A stretch of 62,839 nucleotides of DNA from a virus (taxonomy: Duplodnaviria; Caudoviricetes). Both the position numbers and the translations under genes were made by a program. The DNA lies in the IMG/VR virus record IMGVR_UViG_3300047548_001519, positions 1-62,839 of that record, one strand, 5' to 3'. Below the pieces are notes generated by a model. It was not told the DNA's origin. It did not search any database and saw only the letters and a list, made by a program, of their open reading frames with translations. Within the stretch, counting starts at the first letter, position 1, and each line of letters starts with the position of its first letter. Shown here piece by piece: positions 9,354 through 21,586 of this stretch.

Positions 9354-9797
9354 TTAAAAGCGATATTTGACGCCACCAGTCAACACGTTAGCGTTGTTCT
9401 GGCTATTCTGGGCGAATTGATATGCATAATCTGCGGTGAGAGAAACATTCTTGCTGACAGGAATTTCTACGCCAATGCCAACAAGACCTGCTGAACCTTC
9501 ATTCCTCGACTGATTCAAATAAGCATAACCAACTTTACCCGATATTACAAAAGATTTGCTTTGGTAGACATCATATGAACCAACCAAAGTCCAACGGTTC
9601 TGGTCACCTTGGCTAAGCCATGCCTGAGCATAACCAGCTGTTAGACCCACTTTACCCCACTTCTCTCCAACAGTCACACCAGCAAGACCCCCATTATTGG
9701 ATCCAGTAGCGCCACCACCAACTACGCCAACTTCCAAAGCGGATGCTGTAGTTGCTGCTGCGGTAAGTGCGACTGCAATTGCCATTTTACGAATCAT
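9354..9797 (-). CDS. Small outer-membrane beta-barrel protein (OmpA/OmpX/Ail-like)
   Basis: Signal peptide (ASA), amphipathic strands, C-terminal GVKYRF BAM signature. Confidence 0.8.
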   Translation of the reverse strand: MIRKMAIAVALTAAATTASALEVGVVGGGATGSNNGGLAGVTVGEKWGKVGLTAGYAQAWLSQGDQNRWTLVGSYDVYQSKSFVISGKVGYAYLNQSRNEGSAGLVGIGVEIPVSKNVSLTADYAYQFAQNSQNNANVLTGGVKYRF

Positions 9798-9819
9798 AGT
9801 ATCTCCTATAGTTAATAAA

Positions 9820-10190
9820 GTACTAGCTGATTGGGTAATAAGGTTCAGCTAGCAAAACCCCAGCTCAGCATGCACTAGGCAGCTAAAGCAAATCGCTCAT
9901 CATTGGCGTTTATAGTTTTTGCTTGATTTACGGTCATCGCCTACCGGATCGTCCATATCTCTACTTGTTACCCTGTCGAATCTAGTCATCCCCATCAAAA
10001 TAAACCTTTTACTACTCCAAATGTAATGGCAAATAGTGGGATCAATATAATTGATGCGGCTAGCAACAATACAAACACCCAAACACATCTAAAGAATAAT
10101 TTTATATATTTCATAAAGTCTATTTTGGTGGAGATGGTGGGATTCGCACCCACGTCCAGGATACCTTTGGATCAACTTCGTACGATCATA
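9820..10190 (-). ncRNA. ssrA: tmRNA, circularly permuted (two-piece) gene; tag ANDERFALAA
   Basis: Acceptor piece ...GGACGTGGGTGCGAATCCCACCATCTCCACCA ends at 10126, upstream of coding piece GGGGATGACTAGATTCGAC starting at 9993; acceptor stem GGGGATG/CATCTCC with G3-U; tag codons 9907-9875; outer boundaries approximate. Confidence 0.9.
9995..10114 (-). CDS. 39-aa hydrophobic peptide encoded in the tmRNA intervening segment
   Basis: MKYIKLFFRCVWVFVLLLAASIILIPLFAITFGVVKGLF fills the spacer between the CCA end and the 5' G; no strong RBS. Confidence 0.5.
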   Translation of the reverse strand: MKYIKLFFRCVWVFVLLLAASIILIPLFAITFGVVKGLF

Positions 10191-10192
10191 AT

Positions 10193-10477
10193 CTATGACT
10201 GCTTTGGTGTACCACCCATACTGATGACGCACATAATTCCTTTTACTATTTCTGTCTTTGTTACTGTATACGACTTTGTCTCTAAGTTTTGCCAAAGAGA
10301 TACGACTATTGTAGCACTTTCAACAGCAGACCACAACTTCATTTCACCGTAGGATTCTATCCATTTGGTCACATCTTCTGTTGAAGAGCAGATAGCGCTC
10401 ATCTTAACATGCTGTACAGAGGGCTGGGCAAAAGCCATCAATGGAACAAATAAAAGCCCTAGAAAGTATTTGCGCAT
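10193..10477 (-). CDS. Secreted hypothetical protein with two cysteines
   Basis: Signal peptide ending AFA; late promoter TATAAATA at 10509-10502. Confidence 0.65.
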   Translation of the reverse strand: MRKYFLGLLFVPLMAFAQPSVQHVKMSAICSSTEDVTKWIESYGEMKLWSAVESATIVVSLWQNLETKSYTVTKTEIVKGIMCVISMGGTPKQS

Positions 10478-15494: not shown

Positions 15495-15767
15495 TTAACG
15501 CTGTCCTACAACACCAAGTGCTTTAAGCATTACACGACCTGCACGGAGCATAGTGCGGGTTGGGGTGCTGTGGCGATAGAAATACTTTACACGACCTTTA
15601 GTGTCGACTTCACGATTGGAGTAAATAACATAACCTTCATCGCGAATCTCACTAATGCGAGCTGCAACAGTCTTGCGGGTTGTGCCCAACTGTGCTGCTA
15701 GCTGTGCTGCAGTCTTCTGTTTGCCTTCTTGAACAAGCGCTTCAAAAATTTTCTGCTTCATACTCAT
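15495..15767 (-). CDS. Winged helix-turn-helix DNA-binding protein
   Basis: TAAQLAAQLGTTRKTVAARISEIRDEGYVI wHTH pattern. Confidence 0.75.
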   Translation of the reverse strand: MSMKQKIFEALVQEGKQKTAAQLAAQLGTTRKTVAARISEIRDEGYVIYSNREVDTKGRVKYFYRHSTPTRTMLRAGRVMLKALGVVGQR

Positions 15768-15865
15768 GTTTCAATTTCTCCTAATATTAAAATGTACCCA
15801 ATTGGTACCCTTACAGTATCGCACATTTTACTTTAACTTGCAACAAATAAAATGTGCAATAAACT

Positions 15866-15940
15866 TGGAGCGGGATACCGGATTCGAACCGGTGACGAAC
15901 AGCTTGGAAGGCTGACACTCTACCCCTGAGTTAATCCCGC
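15866..15940 (-). tRNA. tRNA-Gly(TCC)
   Basis: Cloverleaf, anticodon loop CTTCCAA, GGTTCGAATCC, CCA. Confidence 0.93.
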
Positions 15941-15941
15941 A

Positions 15942-16502
15942 TTACATTGATGGTCCATTACCATTCTTAAAACCAATCTGACCACCTTCCGCTTCAATTC
16001 GTTTGATTACTTCCTCGAAAAGAATTGGAGCAAAGTCTGTCTGTTCAACACATACACAATGATACCGTGTATCGATAACTTTGTCAATCTTAACTCGATT
16101 GGCATGGAGATGCCCGTGAATGTTTGTTCCAAACCGGCCAAGACTTTCTGGATGGATGGGAATATGACTAAGAATCATTCCGTTCATAACATGATATGCA
16201 CGAAGCTCACGAAAGTATTGTCTGTACTCCTCATCACGGAAGATGTCATGGTTACCACGAATCAGAACCTTGTCACCGTTCAAGCGAGTGAGTGTAGATA
16301 ATGCCTTACGGTTAATTACTACATCGCCAAGATGATACACTTTGTCGTTGGGACGCACACGATCGTTCCAGCGTTTGATCATTTCTTCATCCATCTCTGC
16401 TGGATCATCCCAAGGACGGAGCTTTGATCCATCATCTCTTAAGAATCGGCATACACCAGCATGACCAAAATGCGTATCGCTAACAAGCCATACAGCAGGC
16501 AT
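15942..16502 (-). CDS. Calcineurin-like metallophosphoesterase
   Basis: SDTHFGH, HLGDV, GNHD, SH.P, HGHLH motifs; start moved to MPAVW because the longer ORF runs into tRNA-Pro. Confidence 0.9.
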   Translation of the reverse strand: MPAVWLVSDTHFGHAGVCRFLRDDGSKLRPWDDPAEMDEEMIKRWNDRVRPNDKVYHLGDVVINRKALSTLTRLNGDKVLIRGNHDIFRDEEYRQYFRELRAYHVMNGMILSHIPIHPESLGRFGTNIHGHLHANRVKIDKVIDTRYHCVCVEQTDFAPILFEEVIKRIEAEGGQIGFKNGNGPSM

Positions 16503-16525
16503 TATGCTTCTCCATAATAAATTAG

Positions 16526-16601
16526 TGGTCTCCGTACTAGGATTTGAACCTAGACCGCTGCGCCCCAAACGCACCACGCTACCTGATTACGCCATACGGA
16601 G
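16526..16601 (-). tRNA. tRNA-Pro(TGG)
   Basis: Cloverleaf, anticodon loop TTTGGGG, GGTTCAAATCC, CCA. Confidence 0.88.
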
Positions 16602-16608
16602 TTAAATT

Positions 16609-16684
16609 TGGTGCCGGTAACAGGGGTCGAACCCGTGACCTTCGCATTACAAATGCGCTGCTCTACCAACTGAGCTACACCGGC
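16609..16684 (-). tRNA. tRNA-Thr(TGT)
   Basis: Cloverleaf, TAGCTCAGTTGGTAGAGC D-arm, anticodon TGT, CCA. Confidence 0.93.
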
Positions 16685-16695
16685 ATGTTTCTATT

Positions 16696-16876
16696 TAGCA
16701 TTGGTGAGAGTACTGTCATATCCTTTTAAGACCTAAACGAGAGGTCTCCTGACATACCTCTAGAACCACCACAGTTCTATTCTCCGAATGAGAGTGAGTA
16801 ATATGCAGGATCGTATTTCACCACGACAGTCTGGCTGCTGGTTAGGCATTTTGCCCTAGGACTCTCAACAATGCTA
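16696..16876 (-). ncRNA. Unassigned ~180-nt structured RNA inside the tRNA cluster
   Basis: Terminal stem TAGCATTGTTGAGAGT/ACTCTCACCAATGCTA (15 of 16 pairs) enclosing several hairpins. Confidence 0.6.
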
Positions 16877-16878
16877 AC

Positions 16879-16953
16879 TGGCCCGGCCGCCAGGAATCGA
16901 ACCTGGATCACAAGATTAGAAGTCATGTGTACTATCCATTGTACTACGGCCAG
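16879..16953 (-). tRNA. tRNA-Arg(TCT)
   Basis: Cloverleaf, anticodon loop CTTCTAA, GGTTCGATTCC, CCA. Confidence 0.9.
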
Positions 16954-16955
16954 CG

Positions 16956-17031
<76 letters not shown>

Positions 17032-17039
17032 GTACTATT

Positions 17040-17116
17040 TGGCGGACCCGACGAGACTCGAACTCGCAACTTCTGCCGTGACAGGGCAGTGCTCTAACCA
17101 ATTGAACTACGGGTCC
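17040..17116 (-). tRNA. tRNA-Asp(GTC)
   Basis: Cloverleaf, anticodon loop CTGTCAC, GCCA end. Confidence 0.93.
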
Positions 17117-17186
17117 TAAAACAAAATAGCCTCCATATGGAGGCTATTGAAAATTCTTAACAAATGTGCTCTCATATTGTTCGATT

Positions 17187-17215
17187 ATTATATATGCTCA
17201 TTTGTGTAAAGTCAA
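17187..17215 (-). promoter_or_regulatory. Sigma70-type promoter for the tRNA cluster
   Basis: TTGACT-N17-TATAAT. Confidence 0.75.
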
Positions 17216-17349
17216 CTGGTTAATCTGGTTCCTCTTCTACGTGCTCAATAATGCGATAATGTTCTGCAGTGGACATTAGCAAATTTCTGAAATTATCTCT
17301 TGCCTCTACCAGTTTTTCGTACCCTTGTCCGCCTTGGGCACTTACTGAC

Positions 17350-17727
17350 GTACCCCGCGGTAGTTTGAATTTGCTGTGTTGTCATGTTATAGATGCCTTC
17401 ACCGTACATCGTTTGATTTTAACAGCTAACCTTATTCTCTATGCGTCCAAAGAGTATTTGGCTTCGACCAACTCCTGATTACAAGTATGCGCTCATGTAA
17501 CCACTCAGAGATTCACTATCCTGCGATCACAGGAATTTTCCATAACAACACAGCAAATTCAACTACTTATCCTACGGTTGTAGGAACTATAATTGTTCTT
17601 AAATTGCGATAACTATCCATATTACTATAACAGAATAAGGATTATTCTGGAATACTAAGAACTATTCAATCAACATCATTAGAGTCACAACCCAACTAAA
17701 CACTGTAATACAGACTGCAATAAAGAG
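17350..17727 (-). ncRNA. Candidate large structured ncRNA
   Basis: No credible ORF; promoter TTGACA-N17-TACCAT at 17761-17733; ~26-bp long-range stem (17541-17566 with 17360-17386) plus several hairpins. Confidence 0.5.
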
Positions 17728-17765
17728 ATAATATGGTAGCATAGAACATTCCTCTTGTCAACTGC

Positions 17766-18582
17766 ATTATATTGAAACATACTGGCTGACTGGATGTACG
17801 CATTTAACTTTGGAACTTAATCCAACTGCACCAATACGCTTCAATATGGTGTCCCTATCGTTACCGGTCAGGGCTATTGTCGGGACTTCGTAGAACCCGA
17901 TCATGACATTGTGTATGACTAGTACACCTGTTTCAATCACATCCTCTACTACTAACCATATTGAAGCACACTGTCGCCAAGGCCGGTTATGATCCGTCTC
18001 TATGTACTAGGCGTTTAGTACATCGCATCACCAGATGCTTGTTCCTTAAATGTGCTTCAATATGATTACTCATATCGATCTTAACGATCTCCCACTGCTC
18101 ACGACTGCTTCCCAATTTCCCGTCAATCTGCACCTGTGGTCAGGCAAAGATCCTCATCGGCCCTGCCTTCTAGAGCAGGTGATCCTTGGGAAAGGACTCT
18201 TAGGCCTAAACCTGCCTAAGATCAGGCACTGCTATATTGAAACACACTCGGTGCTGATCAGGCACTTACAGGAATCGAACCTGCCACCCCGAGACTCAGA
18301 GCTGTATCCAACGAACCAATGCGCTTGGTCTGAATGTGCTTCAATATAGCCCGACTGGGGCTCATACATTGTACTACCGGTAGTACAATTGTACTACCCT
18401 TTAACGGAACAGTCGGCACTCCGTATGGCACCGGTTTTTCCCTAAAAGGTAAATTTCCACCACCGGAAGGACAAGTTTCGAACCTTGTTACCATATTGAA
18501 ACACACTCAACTTTCCTCTACCCTTGCCCGGCAAATCCGGCACAACAGCAGGATCTTGGTCAAATGTGCTTCAATATGGTAA
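17766..18582 (-). repeat. Array of four stem-closed RNA units sharing arms ACCATATTGAAGCACATT / AGTGTGTTTCAATATGGT
   Basis: Units at ~17766-17850, 17954-18067, 18231-18350 and 18488-18582; a degenerate further copy at ~19418-19498. Confidence 0.8.
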
Positions 18583-18746
18583 ACACCGAGTAGCATACAG
18601 GCGCACCCGCCCATATACCTTAAACTCTTATCCGCTTGATCTAGATTTTACACCACATCAAGTTTCGGTGTTACCATATTGACTAGTGTTTTGAGGTCAC
18701 CAGTCTGATAGATCACTATCACCTGTTACGTTATAATCAGCAGTGA

Positions 18747-19013
18747 TCATGCTTCCTCCTTCATGCCCATTGCACGAGCAGCGATAACGCCTGCTTTGTT
18801 CAAATACAGCACACGGTTGCGGGTAGCAGTTACAACGTATAAGCAGCCTTCTGCATCATCTGCCCGAGCGTCAAACTTTACGTTTGGATCCTTAAGCAGG
18901 GCAGTGATAGCCATCTTGCGGGCACGTTCGCCTTCGTTGTAGGTACCGTTGCAGCCGCACATGCAGCCTGGTTTACCGGAATAGCTACGGGTAGTTTGAT
19001 TTACTGTAAGCAT
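18747..19013 (-). CDS. Hypothetical early protein (YSGKPGCMCGCNG motif)
   Basis: Start MLTVNQ after AGGAG; consensus promoter upstream. Confidence 0.7.
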   Translation of the reverse strand: MLTVNQTTRSYSGKPGCMCGCNGTYNEGERARKMAITALLKDPNVKFDARADDAEGCLYVVTATRNRVLYLNKAGVIAARAMGMKEEA

Positions 19014-19045
19014 CTTTCGCTCCTGTTTTGCTAGTGTATGTGTCA

Positions 19046-19074
19046 ATTATACAGCCAAAATCGCTAGATGTCAA
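19046..19074 (-). promoter_or_regulatory. Consensus sigma70 early promoter
   Basis: TTGACA-N17-TATAAT. Confidence 0.88.
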
Positions 19075-19084
19075 CCAAAAAATG

Positions 19085-19324
19085 CTAGACCAAACCCTGA
19101 AGCAATTGGCTAACCCACATTGGCTTATTGGCATCAACGACTGTTCCTGTGTTGGTCTCTATACGAACACGAACAATACGGTCAGGATTGCCAAAGCGTG
19201 TACTGACAGGATCAACTTTCAATACAGTACTGATATAGTAGAAATAACCGTTTCCGGAAGTAAGTTGAGTATCACTACCGAAACGGTCACCTACTTTAAC
19301 TTGATCATATGTTGGGTTAAACAT
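19085..19324 (-). CDS. Hypothetical early protein
   Basis: GGGAG RBS; promoter TTGACT-N17-TATAAT at 19384-19356. Confidence 0.6.
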   Translation of the reverse strand: MFNPTYDQVKVGDRFGSDTQLTSGNGYFYYISTVLKVDPVSTRFGNPDRIVRVRIETNTGTVVDANKPMWVSQLLQGLV

Positions 19325-19542
19325 CTCTCGCTCCCTGTTGTTTCACTATAACTACATTATACAACTAAGTCTGAATATAGTCAAGTTGTATTTTTACAAC
19401 AGTTGCTTATTTACAACACCATATTGAAACACACTATGCCTTTACCTCAAATCCGTCGCCCGCAAAAGGGGCCGGAATCGAACAGAGCATTTCTTCAAAC
19501 AACAAGATCATTATATACCTGTTTACTATAAAAGTCAACCGA

Positions 19543-20007
19543 TTATTTACCACAATTTTTGTCGGGATAGTACTGCGATGTATACTGCTCGATGTCGACC
19601 TCACACCTCTTTAGGAAGTCCACACCGTTATCGTTCTTGTACACATCGCGATAAAACACTCTTCGTATTCCTGCTCCATATATTAGTTTAGCACATTCAA
19701 TACAAGGAGCATGAGTACAAAATAAATAGGCACCATCACCTCCGTCACTAGAACGGGCAAGTTTTGATATAGCGTTAGCTTCAGCATGGATTGTTTCATC
19801 TTTTGTCCTCAATGTAATTGAACCATCATCGTTAACGATTTCGTTTTCACAGTTGTTATCCCAACCTGAAGGTGGATTGTTATACCCAATGGATATGATA
19901 CGGTTGTCTTTTACCACAACTGCACCTACTCTCAATCGGCGCGATGAGGAGAGCTGAGCAAAACGCTCGGCTACATCCATAAAAGCGTCGATCCATTTAG
20001 TCTTCAT
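19543..20007 (-). CDS. cd: dCMP deaminase
   Basis: VGAVVVKDNRIISIGYN, HAEANAI, THAPCIECAKLI zinc motifs. Confidence 0.92.
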   Translation of the reverse strand: MKTKWIDAFMDVAERFAQLSSSRRLRVGAVVVKDNRIISIGYNNPPSGWDNNCENEIVNDDGSITLRTKDETIHAEANAISKLARSSDGGDGAYLFCTHAPCIECAKLIYGAGIRRVFYRDVYKNDNGVDFLKRCEVDIEQYTSQYYPDKNCGK

Positions 20008-20878: not shown

Positions 20879-21586
20879 ATGGACAGCAACTTTATTTACT
20901 GTGTTTATCTCACAACATATCGTGGAAATAAACTCCCTCCCTTCTACATCGGATCTTCCAGTATTGATAGAATAACTAAAGGATATCACGGTTCTGTGTT
21001 GTCCAAAAAGTACTCCGATATATGGAAAACCGAGTTACGTATCAACCCCCATCTATTCAAAACACAAATAATATCTAAACATACAAACCGCAAAGAAGCT
21101 CTTGCGAAAGAAAATTATATTCAAAAAACACTAAATGTAATAAAGTCTCCTTTATATATCAACCAAGCAATTGCTCAAATTAATGGATATGCTGGACACG
21201 ATGTTTCGGGTGTATGTAATCCTATGTATGGACAAGGTCACAAAGTAAAGGGTATGAAAAATGGTAGATATGGAGATAGCAGAACTACCTTTAAGGATAA
21301 AAACGGTAATAATATCTTCACATCACCACAAGATCCAAGAGTTGTTTCTGGCGATCTTATTGGAATAGGCACCAACGGCAATAAAATTAGCATTACTAAA
21401 CTTTCTGCAAAATTTCCCAATTGCAAAAAACAAACTCGTGGTGAGTTGTACAAACACATATATGATTGCTATATATCCTCAAAACTAAAGCGAACCATAT
21501 TTTGCAAAAATCACTCGCTTGATTACAATACCTTCTTAAAAATCATCAAGGTCGTTGAGGAGCAATCTACAGCGATATTTAATTAA
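20879..21586 (+). CDS. Antisense free-standing GIY-YIG-like (Seg-type) homing endonuclease
   Basis: YCVYLT...PPFYIGS, GYHGS, ...KE..Q......YIN; 3' end overlaps the rnh 3' end. Confidence 0.8.
   Translation: MDSNFIYCVYLTTYRGNKLPPFYIGSSSIDRITKGYHGSVLSKKYSDIWKTELRINPHLFKTQIISKHTNRKEALAKENYIQKTLNVIKSPLYINQAIAQINGYAGHDVSGVCNPMYGQGHKVKGMKNGRYGDSRTTFKDKNGNNIFTSPQDPRVVSGDLIGIGTNGNKISITKLSAKFPNCKKQTRGELYKHIYDCYISSKLKRTIFCKNHSLDYNTFLKIIKVVEEQSTAIFN

Follow-up and report, generated by a model that had tools for sequence, protein, structure and literature searches.

An 18-bp hairpin family of phage tRNA arrays, often anchored at the CCA end of the preceding tRNA

Among working systems, the element described here is most nearly paralleled by the processing stems of RNase III and by RNAs that are punctuated by, or linked to, tRNAs. 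In T7-type intercistronic RNase III hairpins and in the processing stems of rRNA, a double-stranded stem sits between functional parts of a transcript; in mitochondrial transcripts and in the tRNA-hairpin units of the herpesvirus MHV68, an RNA that abuts tRNAs can be freed through RNase P and 3'-end enzymes. We describe here a hairpin with likenesses to both, carried by a 62,839-nt stretch of Caudoviricetes DNA (IMG/VR record IMGVR_UViG_3300047548_001519, 38% complete; the whole stretch is hereafter called the window). Four such hairpins occupy the minus strand between a small open reading frame (ORF; 19046-18747) and a tRNA cluster (17116-15866). They belong to a real and widespread family of phage RNAs, apparently undescribed, that resides in tRNA and small-RNA arrays of large uncultivated phages and the helix of which, exactly 18 bp long, often starts with the discriminator base and CCA end (N73-CCA) of the tRNA upstream.

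The comparison with RNase III hairpins rests on the location of the helix between RNA genes and on the length of its stem, 18 bp being close to the minimum that RNase III needs in a substrate. The family's own features are a register fixed on the CCA of the upstream RNA, an arm sequence conserved over hundreds of phages, and a loop that serves as a cargo site. The likeness to tRNA-linked RNAs is that some family members stand at 0-nt spacing to both neighbouring tRNAs; unlike those of MHV68 and mitochondria, the present hairpins belong to a bacterial virus and base-pair with the CCA itself. Species 1 and 2 of phage T4 (rnaC and rnaD) are likewise small non-tRNA RNAs in line with phage tRNAs, and rnaC has a T-arm near its 3' end. 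However, the T4 species have no 18-bp handle and are not repeated with variable loops, and neither the arm motif nor a match to the covariance model introduced below was found in the T4 tRNA region (L120).

Two further systems were considered and rejected. Y RNA and YrlA share with the family a long terminal stem and, in about 10% of family members, a tRNA-like T-arm module, but the present helix is regular and has no conserved bulge. The sole row for the YrlA model (RF02553; 19.9 bits, E 1.1) falls on tRNA genes at 17007-17070 and none falls in 17766-19500; nor was a TROVE/Ro60 protein found in the window or in five complete carrier genomes. The analogy to Y RNAs drawn in a first-pass annotation of this DNA, made from the letters alone, is thus abandoned. 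Integron attC sites form arrays of gene plus imperfect palindrome, with a variable central part and similar overall lengths. Here, in contrast, the cassettes are RNA genes with a strong RNA-strand signature, the arms (ACCATATTGAAGCACATT / AGTGTGTTTCAATATGGT) lack the GTTRRRY core, and no integrase was seen nearby by eye.

The helix and its family

All four window hairpins share a closing helix of 18 bp (ACCAUAUUGAAGCACAUU / AGUGUGUUUCAAUAUGGU). Its arm core, ATATTGAARCRYA, occurs 10 times in the 62.8-kb window when at most one mismatch is allowed, with nine of the copies within 17769-19433. Shuffles of the window gave a mean of 1.1 copies and a maximum of 5 (0/100 reached 10). A repeat search of the window returned the 3' arm five times and the 5' arm four times. 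Read on the minus strand, units 2, 3 and 4 each form 16 Watson-Crick and two G-U pairs out of 18, and unit 1 forms 13 Watson-Crick and three G-U pairs, with C-A mismatches at positions 2 and 3; on the plus strand, the G-U pairs would become A-C mismatches. The arms also covary. Thus, ACC/GGU is replaced by GCU/AGC in unit 3, where two pairs are altered on both sides, and C-G by U-A at position 15 of unit 1. As whole units, hairpins 1 to 4 fold with z-scores of -6.25, -5.87, -5.26 and -7.97 relative to shuffled sequence (200 shuffles).

The first-pass annotation had reported the shared minus-strand stem, with G-U pairs on that strand only, and the covarying arms, and both are borne out by the pairing above and by the model scores below. 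It had also seen no credible ORF in the array; indeed, the ORFs there are short and overlapping, and several begin inside arms. Of its five units, four stand as hairpins. The 'fifth' is a solo 3' arm that folds at chance level (z -1.24; 26/200 shuffles equally good) and, at E<=10, the model finds nothing at 19418-19500; the promoter described ahead of it does correspond to a promoter-like site. Unit 4 ends at 18580 rather than 18582, and the interiors of units 1-4 have the lengths listed in Table 1. The two T-loop strings that had been pointed out, in unit 3 and in the 'fifth' unit, are present in the sequence; no tRNA was found in 17766-19500, either with the Rfam tRNA model (RF00005) at E<=10 or with ARAGORN.

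Outside the window, a 16-letter arm pattern matches at least 118 IMG/VR stretches and, among the matches listed, nearly all lie within phage tRNA arrays. These matches and the window together hold 176 arm pairs, with a tRNA in the locus for 173 and at most 1 kb away for 168. In prokaryote genome contigs, only 3 of 120 matches have a partner arm, the other 117 being single arms, as chance predicts. Five complete carrier phage genomes (156-400 kb) contain the exact arms as one pair apiece and nowhere else.

With the window left out, 60 hairpins from other phages and loci served to build a covariance model (R1). Applied to the window, this model recovers exactly the four units, scoring 58.8 (hairpin 4), 49.7 (hairpin 2), 44.5 (hairpin 3) and 29.4 bits (hairpin 1) on the minus strand, with E-values of 2e-13 for hairpin 4 and 1.6e-5 for hairpin 1. 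The corresponding plus-strand scores are 37.6, 32.1, 22.3 and 22.8 bits, the minus strand being 7-22 bits better throughout. In an independent sample of 80 loci, gathered via a protein and not via the arm motif, R1 finds 75 places in 42 loci, all but one of which (74/75) score better on the strand that carries genes and tRNAs. This is the search in other phages that had been suggested at first pass, and the arms proved to be conserved there. R1 has no match in the T4, PHB04 or DLP6 regions.

The units match nothing in Rfam, in keeping with the earlier statement that they could not be assigned to a known family. At gathering score, the whole window yields tRNAs and a tmRNA only, and at E<=10 no match lies inside the units over 15500-20000. 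At gathering score, 13 carrier loci (141 kb) give 216 rows, the best 150 of which comprise one group I intron, one permuted tmRNA and otherwise tRNAs. Searched at E<=10 against 50,697 phage records, a 97-nt family member matched none of them; such short arms lie near the limit of that search. No description of such hairpins was found in the literature; a 2023 catalogue of 8,495 IMG/VR candidate RNAs (PMC10690425) does not use the word 'hairpin' in its main text, and its supplementary tables may list the motif.

The helix is selected as RNA. Its consensus is 5' N-CCA-UAUUGAARCACAUU ... AGUGUGYUUCAAUA-UGG-U 3', and across 212 distinct hairpins positions 1-18 are paired (3673/3816 cells, 96%), with pairing collapsing at positions 19-22. 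Changes on both sides of a pair number 307 in this set, compared with a mean of 39.9 and a maximum of 71 in shuffles. In alignment A4, 95.5% of the cells are paired and 13 of the 18 pairs show compensatory change (0/500 shuffles as high), against 32-45% paired in slid controls. Diverged members may have quite different arms and yet retain the helix. The 212 hairpins contain 380 G-U pairs versus 58 A-C mismatches, and in 70 of 72 units the strand that G-U defines is also that of the tRNAs. Particular bases are kept as well, position 17 being U-G in 152/212 hairpins. As a side observation, an A-C mismatch recurs at position 9 (28/212 hairpins; ACCAUAUUAAAACACAUU paired with ...UUUCAAUAUGGU), while A-C is rare at other positions.

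Register, inter-hairpin RNAs and loops

Among the 142 units with a tRNA upstream on the same strand, the CCA end of that tRNA coincides with the start of the 5' arm in 54. The last A of the CCA is then the A preceding UAUUGAA, and therefore the helix begins at N73; the discriminator and CCA of the tRNA upstream thus often supply exactly the first four bases of the helix. When hairpins were sought by structure only, 109 of 1235 CCA-ending tRNAs proved to have one after them that is anchored at N73 and has at least 14 pairs (null, 1/600). On the downstream side, the next tRNA starts 0 nt past ...CAAUAU in 17 distinct cases, and otherwise follows a leader of 1-18 nt, mostly AU-rich; UGGU is retained even where a spacer precedes that tRNA. 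Bare handles with loops of 5-9 nt fit between two tRNAs at zero spacing. By tRNA type, hairpins follow Lys in 24/54, Glu in 24/66, Gln in 9/39 and Leu in 19/114 cases and are absent after Met (0/105), Asp (0/55), Trp and His, figures in which kinship of the phages is not controlled. That the helix starts at N73-CCA suggests that it helps to punctuate or process the array.

The window presents this arrangement with other RNAs in the place of tRNAs. None of its eight tRNAs has a hairpin directly after it, and no window helix starts at the N73-CCA of a tRNA. Instead, the hairpins punctuate four non-tRNA RNAs, designated X4 to X1 (Table 1). These run into ACCA, GCUA, AUCA and ACCA, which in each case form the ACCA-like beginning of the helix that follows. 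X4 folds better than all of 200 shuffles (z -5.65); neither it nor X3 has relatives detected in the family loci. X2 is 75% identical to a sequence in the cultured Bordetella phage PHB04, the sole match of the window's 2.2 kb among named phages and one confined to X2, and 84% identical to locus L039. Ten of its pairs show compensatory changes across three sequences, and its two invariant boxes, CCCAAGGAUCACC and GGGCCGAUGAG, occur together in 31 viral stretches; places of the family include L001 5001-5112 and L321-L350. X2 has no Rfam match. The X2 family is not tied to the hairpins: only 12 of its 32 places have tRNAs in the locus, and most stretches with the boxes have no family hairpin nearby. 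Downstream of X2, a short GC-rich hairpin stands in most aligned sequences; in L325 its place is taken by the 18-bp handle, as in the window. X1 has relatives that are again bordered by family hairpins, with 81% identity over 93 nt in L066 (laid out as tRNA-Lys, hairpin, X1, hairpin, tRNA) and 90% over 39 nt in L119.

In this window, it is X4 to X1 that are conserved or structured; the loops are unique and have little structure. The first-pass annotation had placed the payload in the interiors. Folded alone, the loops of hairpins 1 to 4 give z-scores of -0.11, -2.56, -0.03 and -1.61, one of the four being clearly more structured than chance. They have no relatives in the 118 loci and are all singletons in the clustering.

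The lengths of loops in the wider family span 5 to about 150 nt, and 212 of the loops fall into 153 clusters, comprising 122 singletons and 31 families with at least two members. In one family, the loops remain about 95% identical though the arms differ at 7 of 18 positions, and the same loop family recurs behind different tRNAs and in different arm variants. Another family, c4, combines conserved single-stranded blocks with 15 covarying pairs (five sequences). A T-arm occurs in 22 of the 212 loops, including that of window unit 3, as opposed to 0.35 expected in shuffles, and in 11 of the 22 it ends within 10 nt of the 3' arm. One loop family, compared with E. coli genomes for likeness to rRNA, gave no match. 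The earlier view of hairpin-rich interiors suits some loop families, which are conserved and covarying, better than the window, where one loop stands out. Similarly, the idea of a cassette system with a common handle agrees with the conserved stem and with interiors that are interchangeable across phages, but it does not cover the 5-9 nt loops and the anchoring of the helix at N73-CCA. The handle alone suffices in members with such loops and is therefore not merely a presenter.

Two other identities were tried for the family and rejected. A self-cleaving ribozyme does not fit loops that are unrelated to one another and that may measure only 5 nt. A miniature inverted-repeat element or other terminal-inverted-repeat transposon does not fit the fixed orientation (74/75 places) and the 153 interior clusters among 212 hairpins, no target-site duplication having been sought outside the arms.

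Table 1. Coordinates and character of the array features in the window
Feature	Coordinates	Strand	Description
Solo 3' arm	19418..19435	-	18/18 identical to the 3' arm of hairpin 4; without a matching 5' arm
Promoter-like site	19538-19510	-	Solo 3' arm lies just downstream
Putative promoter, sigma-70-like	19046..19074	-	12/12 consensus match only; precedes the small ORF 19046-18747
3'-arm remnant plus flank, 14 nt (UCAAUAUGGUAACA)	18669..18682	-	Exact copy of 18486-18499; directly upstream of X4
X4	18581..18668	-	Structured RNA; own 8-bp terminal stem; runs into the ACCA that starts hairpin 4
Hairpin 4	18490..18580	-	5' arm 18580-18563 (ACCAUAUUGAAGCACAUU); 55-nt loop; 3' arm 18507-18490
X3	18351..18489	-	Structured RNA between hairpins 4 and 3; fold z -3.64
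Hairpin 3	18231..18350	-	Covarying GCU/AGC arm base; 84-nt loop with T-arm (GCAGGUUCGAUUCCUGU)
X2	18067..18230	-	Member of a conserved structured RNA family, about 125-150 nt
Hairpin 2	17955..18066	-	76-nt loop
X1	17851..17954	-	RNA lying between hairpins 2 and 1; related sequences in two further phage contigs
Hairpin 1	17766..17850	-	Most diverged; two C-A mismatches at base; 49-nt loop

Possible roles of the helix

What computation establishes is the helix and its strand, the register on the CCA, the tRNA context, and loop families that are re-assorted; co-transcription, excision, the enzymes and any function of the cargo we infer. The explanation we favour, at about an even chance of being right, is that the hairpin is a CCA-anchored punctuation or processing element of polycistronic stable-RNA transcripts, with optional cargo. 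The helix would fold as soon as it is transcribed, insulate the neighbouring RNAs from one another, and mark where the upstream RNA ends, at its CCA, and where the next RNA begins. RNase P would cut at the following tRNA, an endonuclease of the RNase III, E or Z/BN type would cut at or inside the helix, and trimming back would stop at the CCA. The excised, stem-clamped RNA could then carry cargo in its loop.

Several facts weigh against this proposal. Neither RNase E nor the usual 3' exonucleases act well on a CCA that is hidden in an 18-bp helix, and therefore the model needs an endonuclease that it does not name. An RNase III domain was found in none of the five complete carrier genomes (0/5), so the enzyme would have to be the host's. 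Generic punctuation does not explain why only about 9% of array tRNAs carry the hairpin, with a bias to Lys, Glu, Gln and Leu. The conservation of the arms, including the position-17 U-G, exceeds what a plain structural spacer needs and hints at a sequence-specific partner, and the conserved loop families suggest that in many members it is the cargo, not a spacer role, that is under selection. Stenotrophomonas phage DLP6, the closest cultured relative as judged by its YkuK-like protein (see below), has 38 tRNAs and no such hairpin. Finally, no RNA ends, cleavage sites or transcripts were seen, the RNA libraries with related sequence being stored only as contigs, which cannot show ends.

Some of the same observations can be read with the cargo first. 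The hairpins would then be free-standing small RNAs, the helix a protein handle or stability clamp and the loops (aptamer- or ribozyme-like, or mimics of the tRNA elbow) the functional part, with the adjacent tRNA serving only for release, as for tRNA-linked RNAs elsewhere. Loop families that are better conserved than their arms and recur behind different tRNAs are what this predicts; the single-stranded blocks and covarying pairs of c4, the excess of T-arms and their frequent position close to the 3' arm, and the strong conservation of arm sequence and of the position-17 U-G agree with it too. Nevertheless, we consider it unlikely, given handles with loops of 5-9 nt, a loop set in which 122 of 153 clusters are singletons, and window loops that are unique and, in three of four cases, fold at or near chance. 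A handle-binding candidate is also missing, TROVE being found in none of the five carriers and the YkuK-like protein, present in four of them, being encoded by the hairpin-less DLP6 as well. If instead the helix served to keep the CCA ends of selected tRNAs or small RNAs paired, as inert precursors awaiting timed cleavage, the purpose could be regulation or counter-defence; host toxins that modify tRNA 3' ends do exist. The start of the helix exactly at N73-CCA, the persistence of UGGU where a spacer separates the next tRNA, and the bias among tRNA types all accord with masking of this sort. We find it improbable all the same: the bias may stem from shared ancestry of the arrays, the window hairpins follow non-tRNA RNAs, no releasing enzyme is identified, and nothing ties the carriers to any defence system.

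The inverted arms might also act at the level of DNA, as recombination sites (attC-like when folded, or homology arms) that swap cassettes, the RNA fold being a by-product. Loops, arms and tRNAs are indeed re-assorted among phages, in one contig of run X9 a different loop family stands between two of the window's arms, and homing-endonuclease-like ORFs abound in the arrays. Against this stand the orientation fixed relative to the tRNAs, the excess of G-U over A-C, and the exact register with the CCA of the transcript. The arms are without the attC core, and no integrase-like family was seen among the 30 most frequent neighbouring ORF clusters (judged by eye, with five proteins scanned against Pfam). 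We therefore regard it as a poor candidate.

A bolder reading, which we offer tentatively and think less likely than not, is that the helix is a universal docking module that both hitches arbitrary functional RNAs (mimics of the tRNA elbow and loops resembling aptamers or ribozymes among them) onto the tRNA processing of large phages and masks the CCA of Lys, Glu, Gln and Leu tRNAs until cleavage. If so, the shared arms would let co-infecting phages exchange RNA cassettes, and the arrays would amount to a modular system in which the cargo comes from dozens of RNA families as yet uncharacterised.

In the usual annotation, a phage tRNA array consists of tRNAs and empty spacers; many of the spacers are one conserved RNA device, in precise register with the tRNA CCA end and present in hundreds of contigs from uncultivated phages. 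The loops and the inter-hairpin RNAs, such as X2 with its relative in a cultured Bordetella phage, include many structured families of uncharacterised role. The family offers an entry point to how large phages mature their own tRNAs, and bears on whether such phages turn tRNA-linked RNAs against the defences of the host. Stable small RNAs might also be expressed on the handle as a natural scaffold.

Transcription context and neighbouring genes

The nearest upstream promoter-like site able to drive the array is the putative sigma-70-like promoter ahead of the small ORF. Because no terminator-like site was found on the minus strand from this 12/12 match to 17148, the array could be a single transcript, as far as consensus matching can tell. 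Part of the window is included in 23 listed public runs, every one stored as contigs. At 90-99% identity, metatranscriptome contigs of run X23 cover relatives of X2, X3 and X4 and of the small ORFs; contigs cannot show ends, strand or transcription, and a lack of cover elsewhere carries no weight. Just upstream of tRNA-Asp, 17215-17125 on the minus strand shows an 11/12 promoter-like site followed at once by a 10-bp terminator-like hairpin, which has weak, sub-threshold Rfam matches to leaders.

Several proteins were considered as possible partners. TROVE/Ro60, RtcB and the YkuK-like family are all absent from the window, as far as a 38%-complete record can tell. A YkuK-like gene is present in four of the five complete carrier genomes. 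This YkuK/DUF458 RNase H-like protein (PF04308) lies inside phage tRNA arrays at L027 691-1161 and in 30 other loci, a median of 10 nt from a tRNA, and is encoded by at least 588 viral stretches. Among the YkuK-like loci sampled (L241-L320), 79 of 80 have tRNAs, 1310 in total; relatives occur also in KVP40-like vibriophages and in DLP6. We claim no link between YkuK and the hairpins, because DLP6 has the gene without them. In the window, a calcineurin-like metallophosphoesterase gene (15942-16577, minus strand) lies within the tRNA cluster, between tRNA-Gly and tRNA-Pro. In 24 loci, relatives are found within tRNA arrays (median distance to a tRNA, 36 nt), an arrangement suggestive of a role in the healing or processing of RNA ends.

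Other mobile or stable-RNA elements accompany these arrays. The homing-endonuclease-like ORFs mentioned above, which are many, were recognised by eye in the cluster translations with no library scan. One further ORF adjoins the window array on the opposite strand (20879-21586, plus); by eye, it is GIY-YIG homing endonuclease-like and recalls segB of the T4 tRNA region. A group I intron (59 bits) lies at L094 4552-4748, inside the tRNA array of a carrier phage. The tmRNA of the window (9784-10218, minus strand) is a permuted, two-piece molecule of betaproteobacterial type with the tag ANDERFALAA; PHB04 and L007 also encode a permuted tmRNA.

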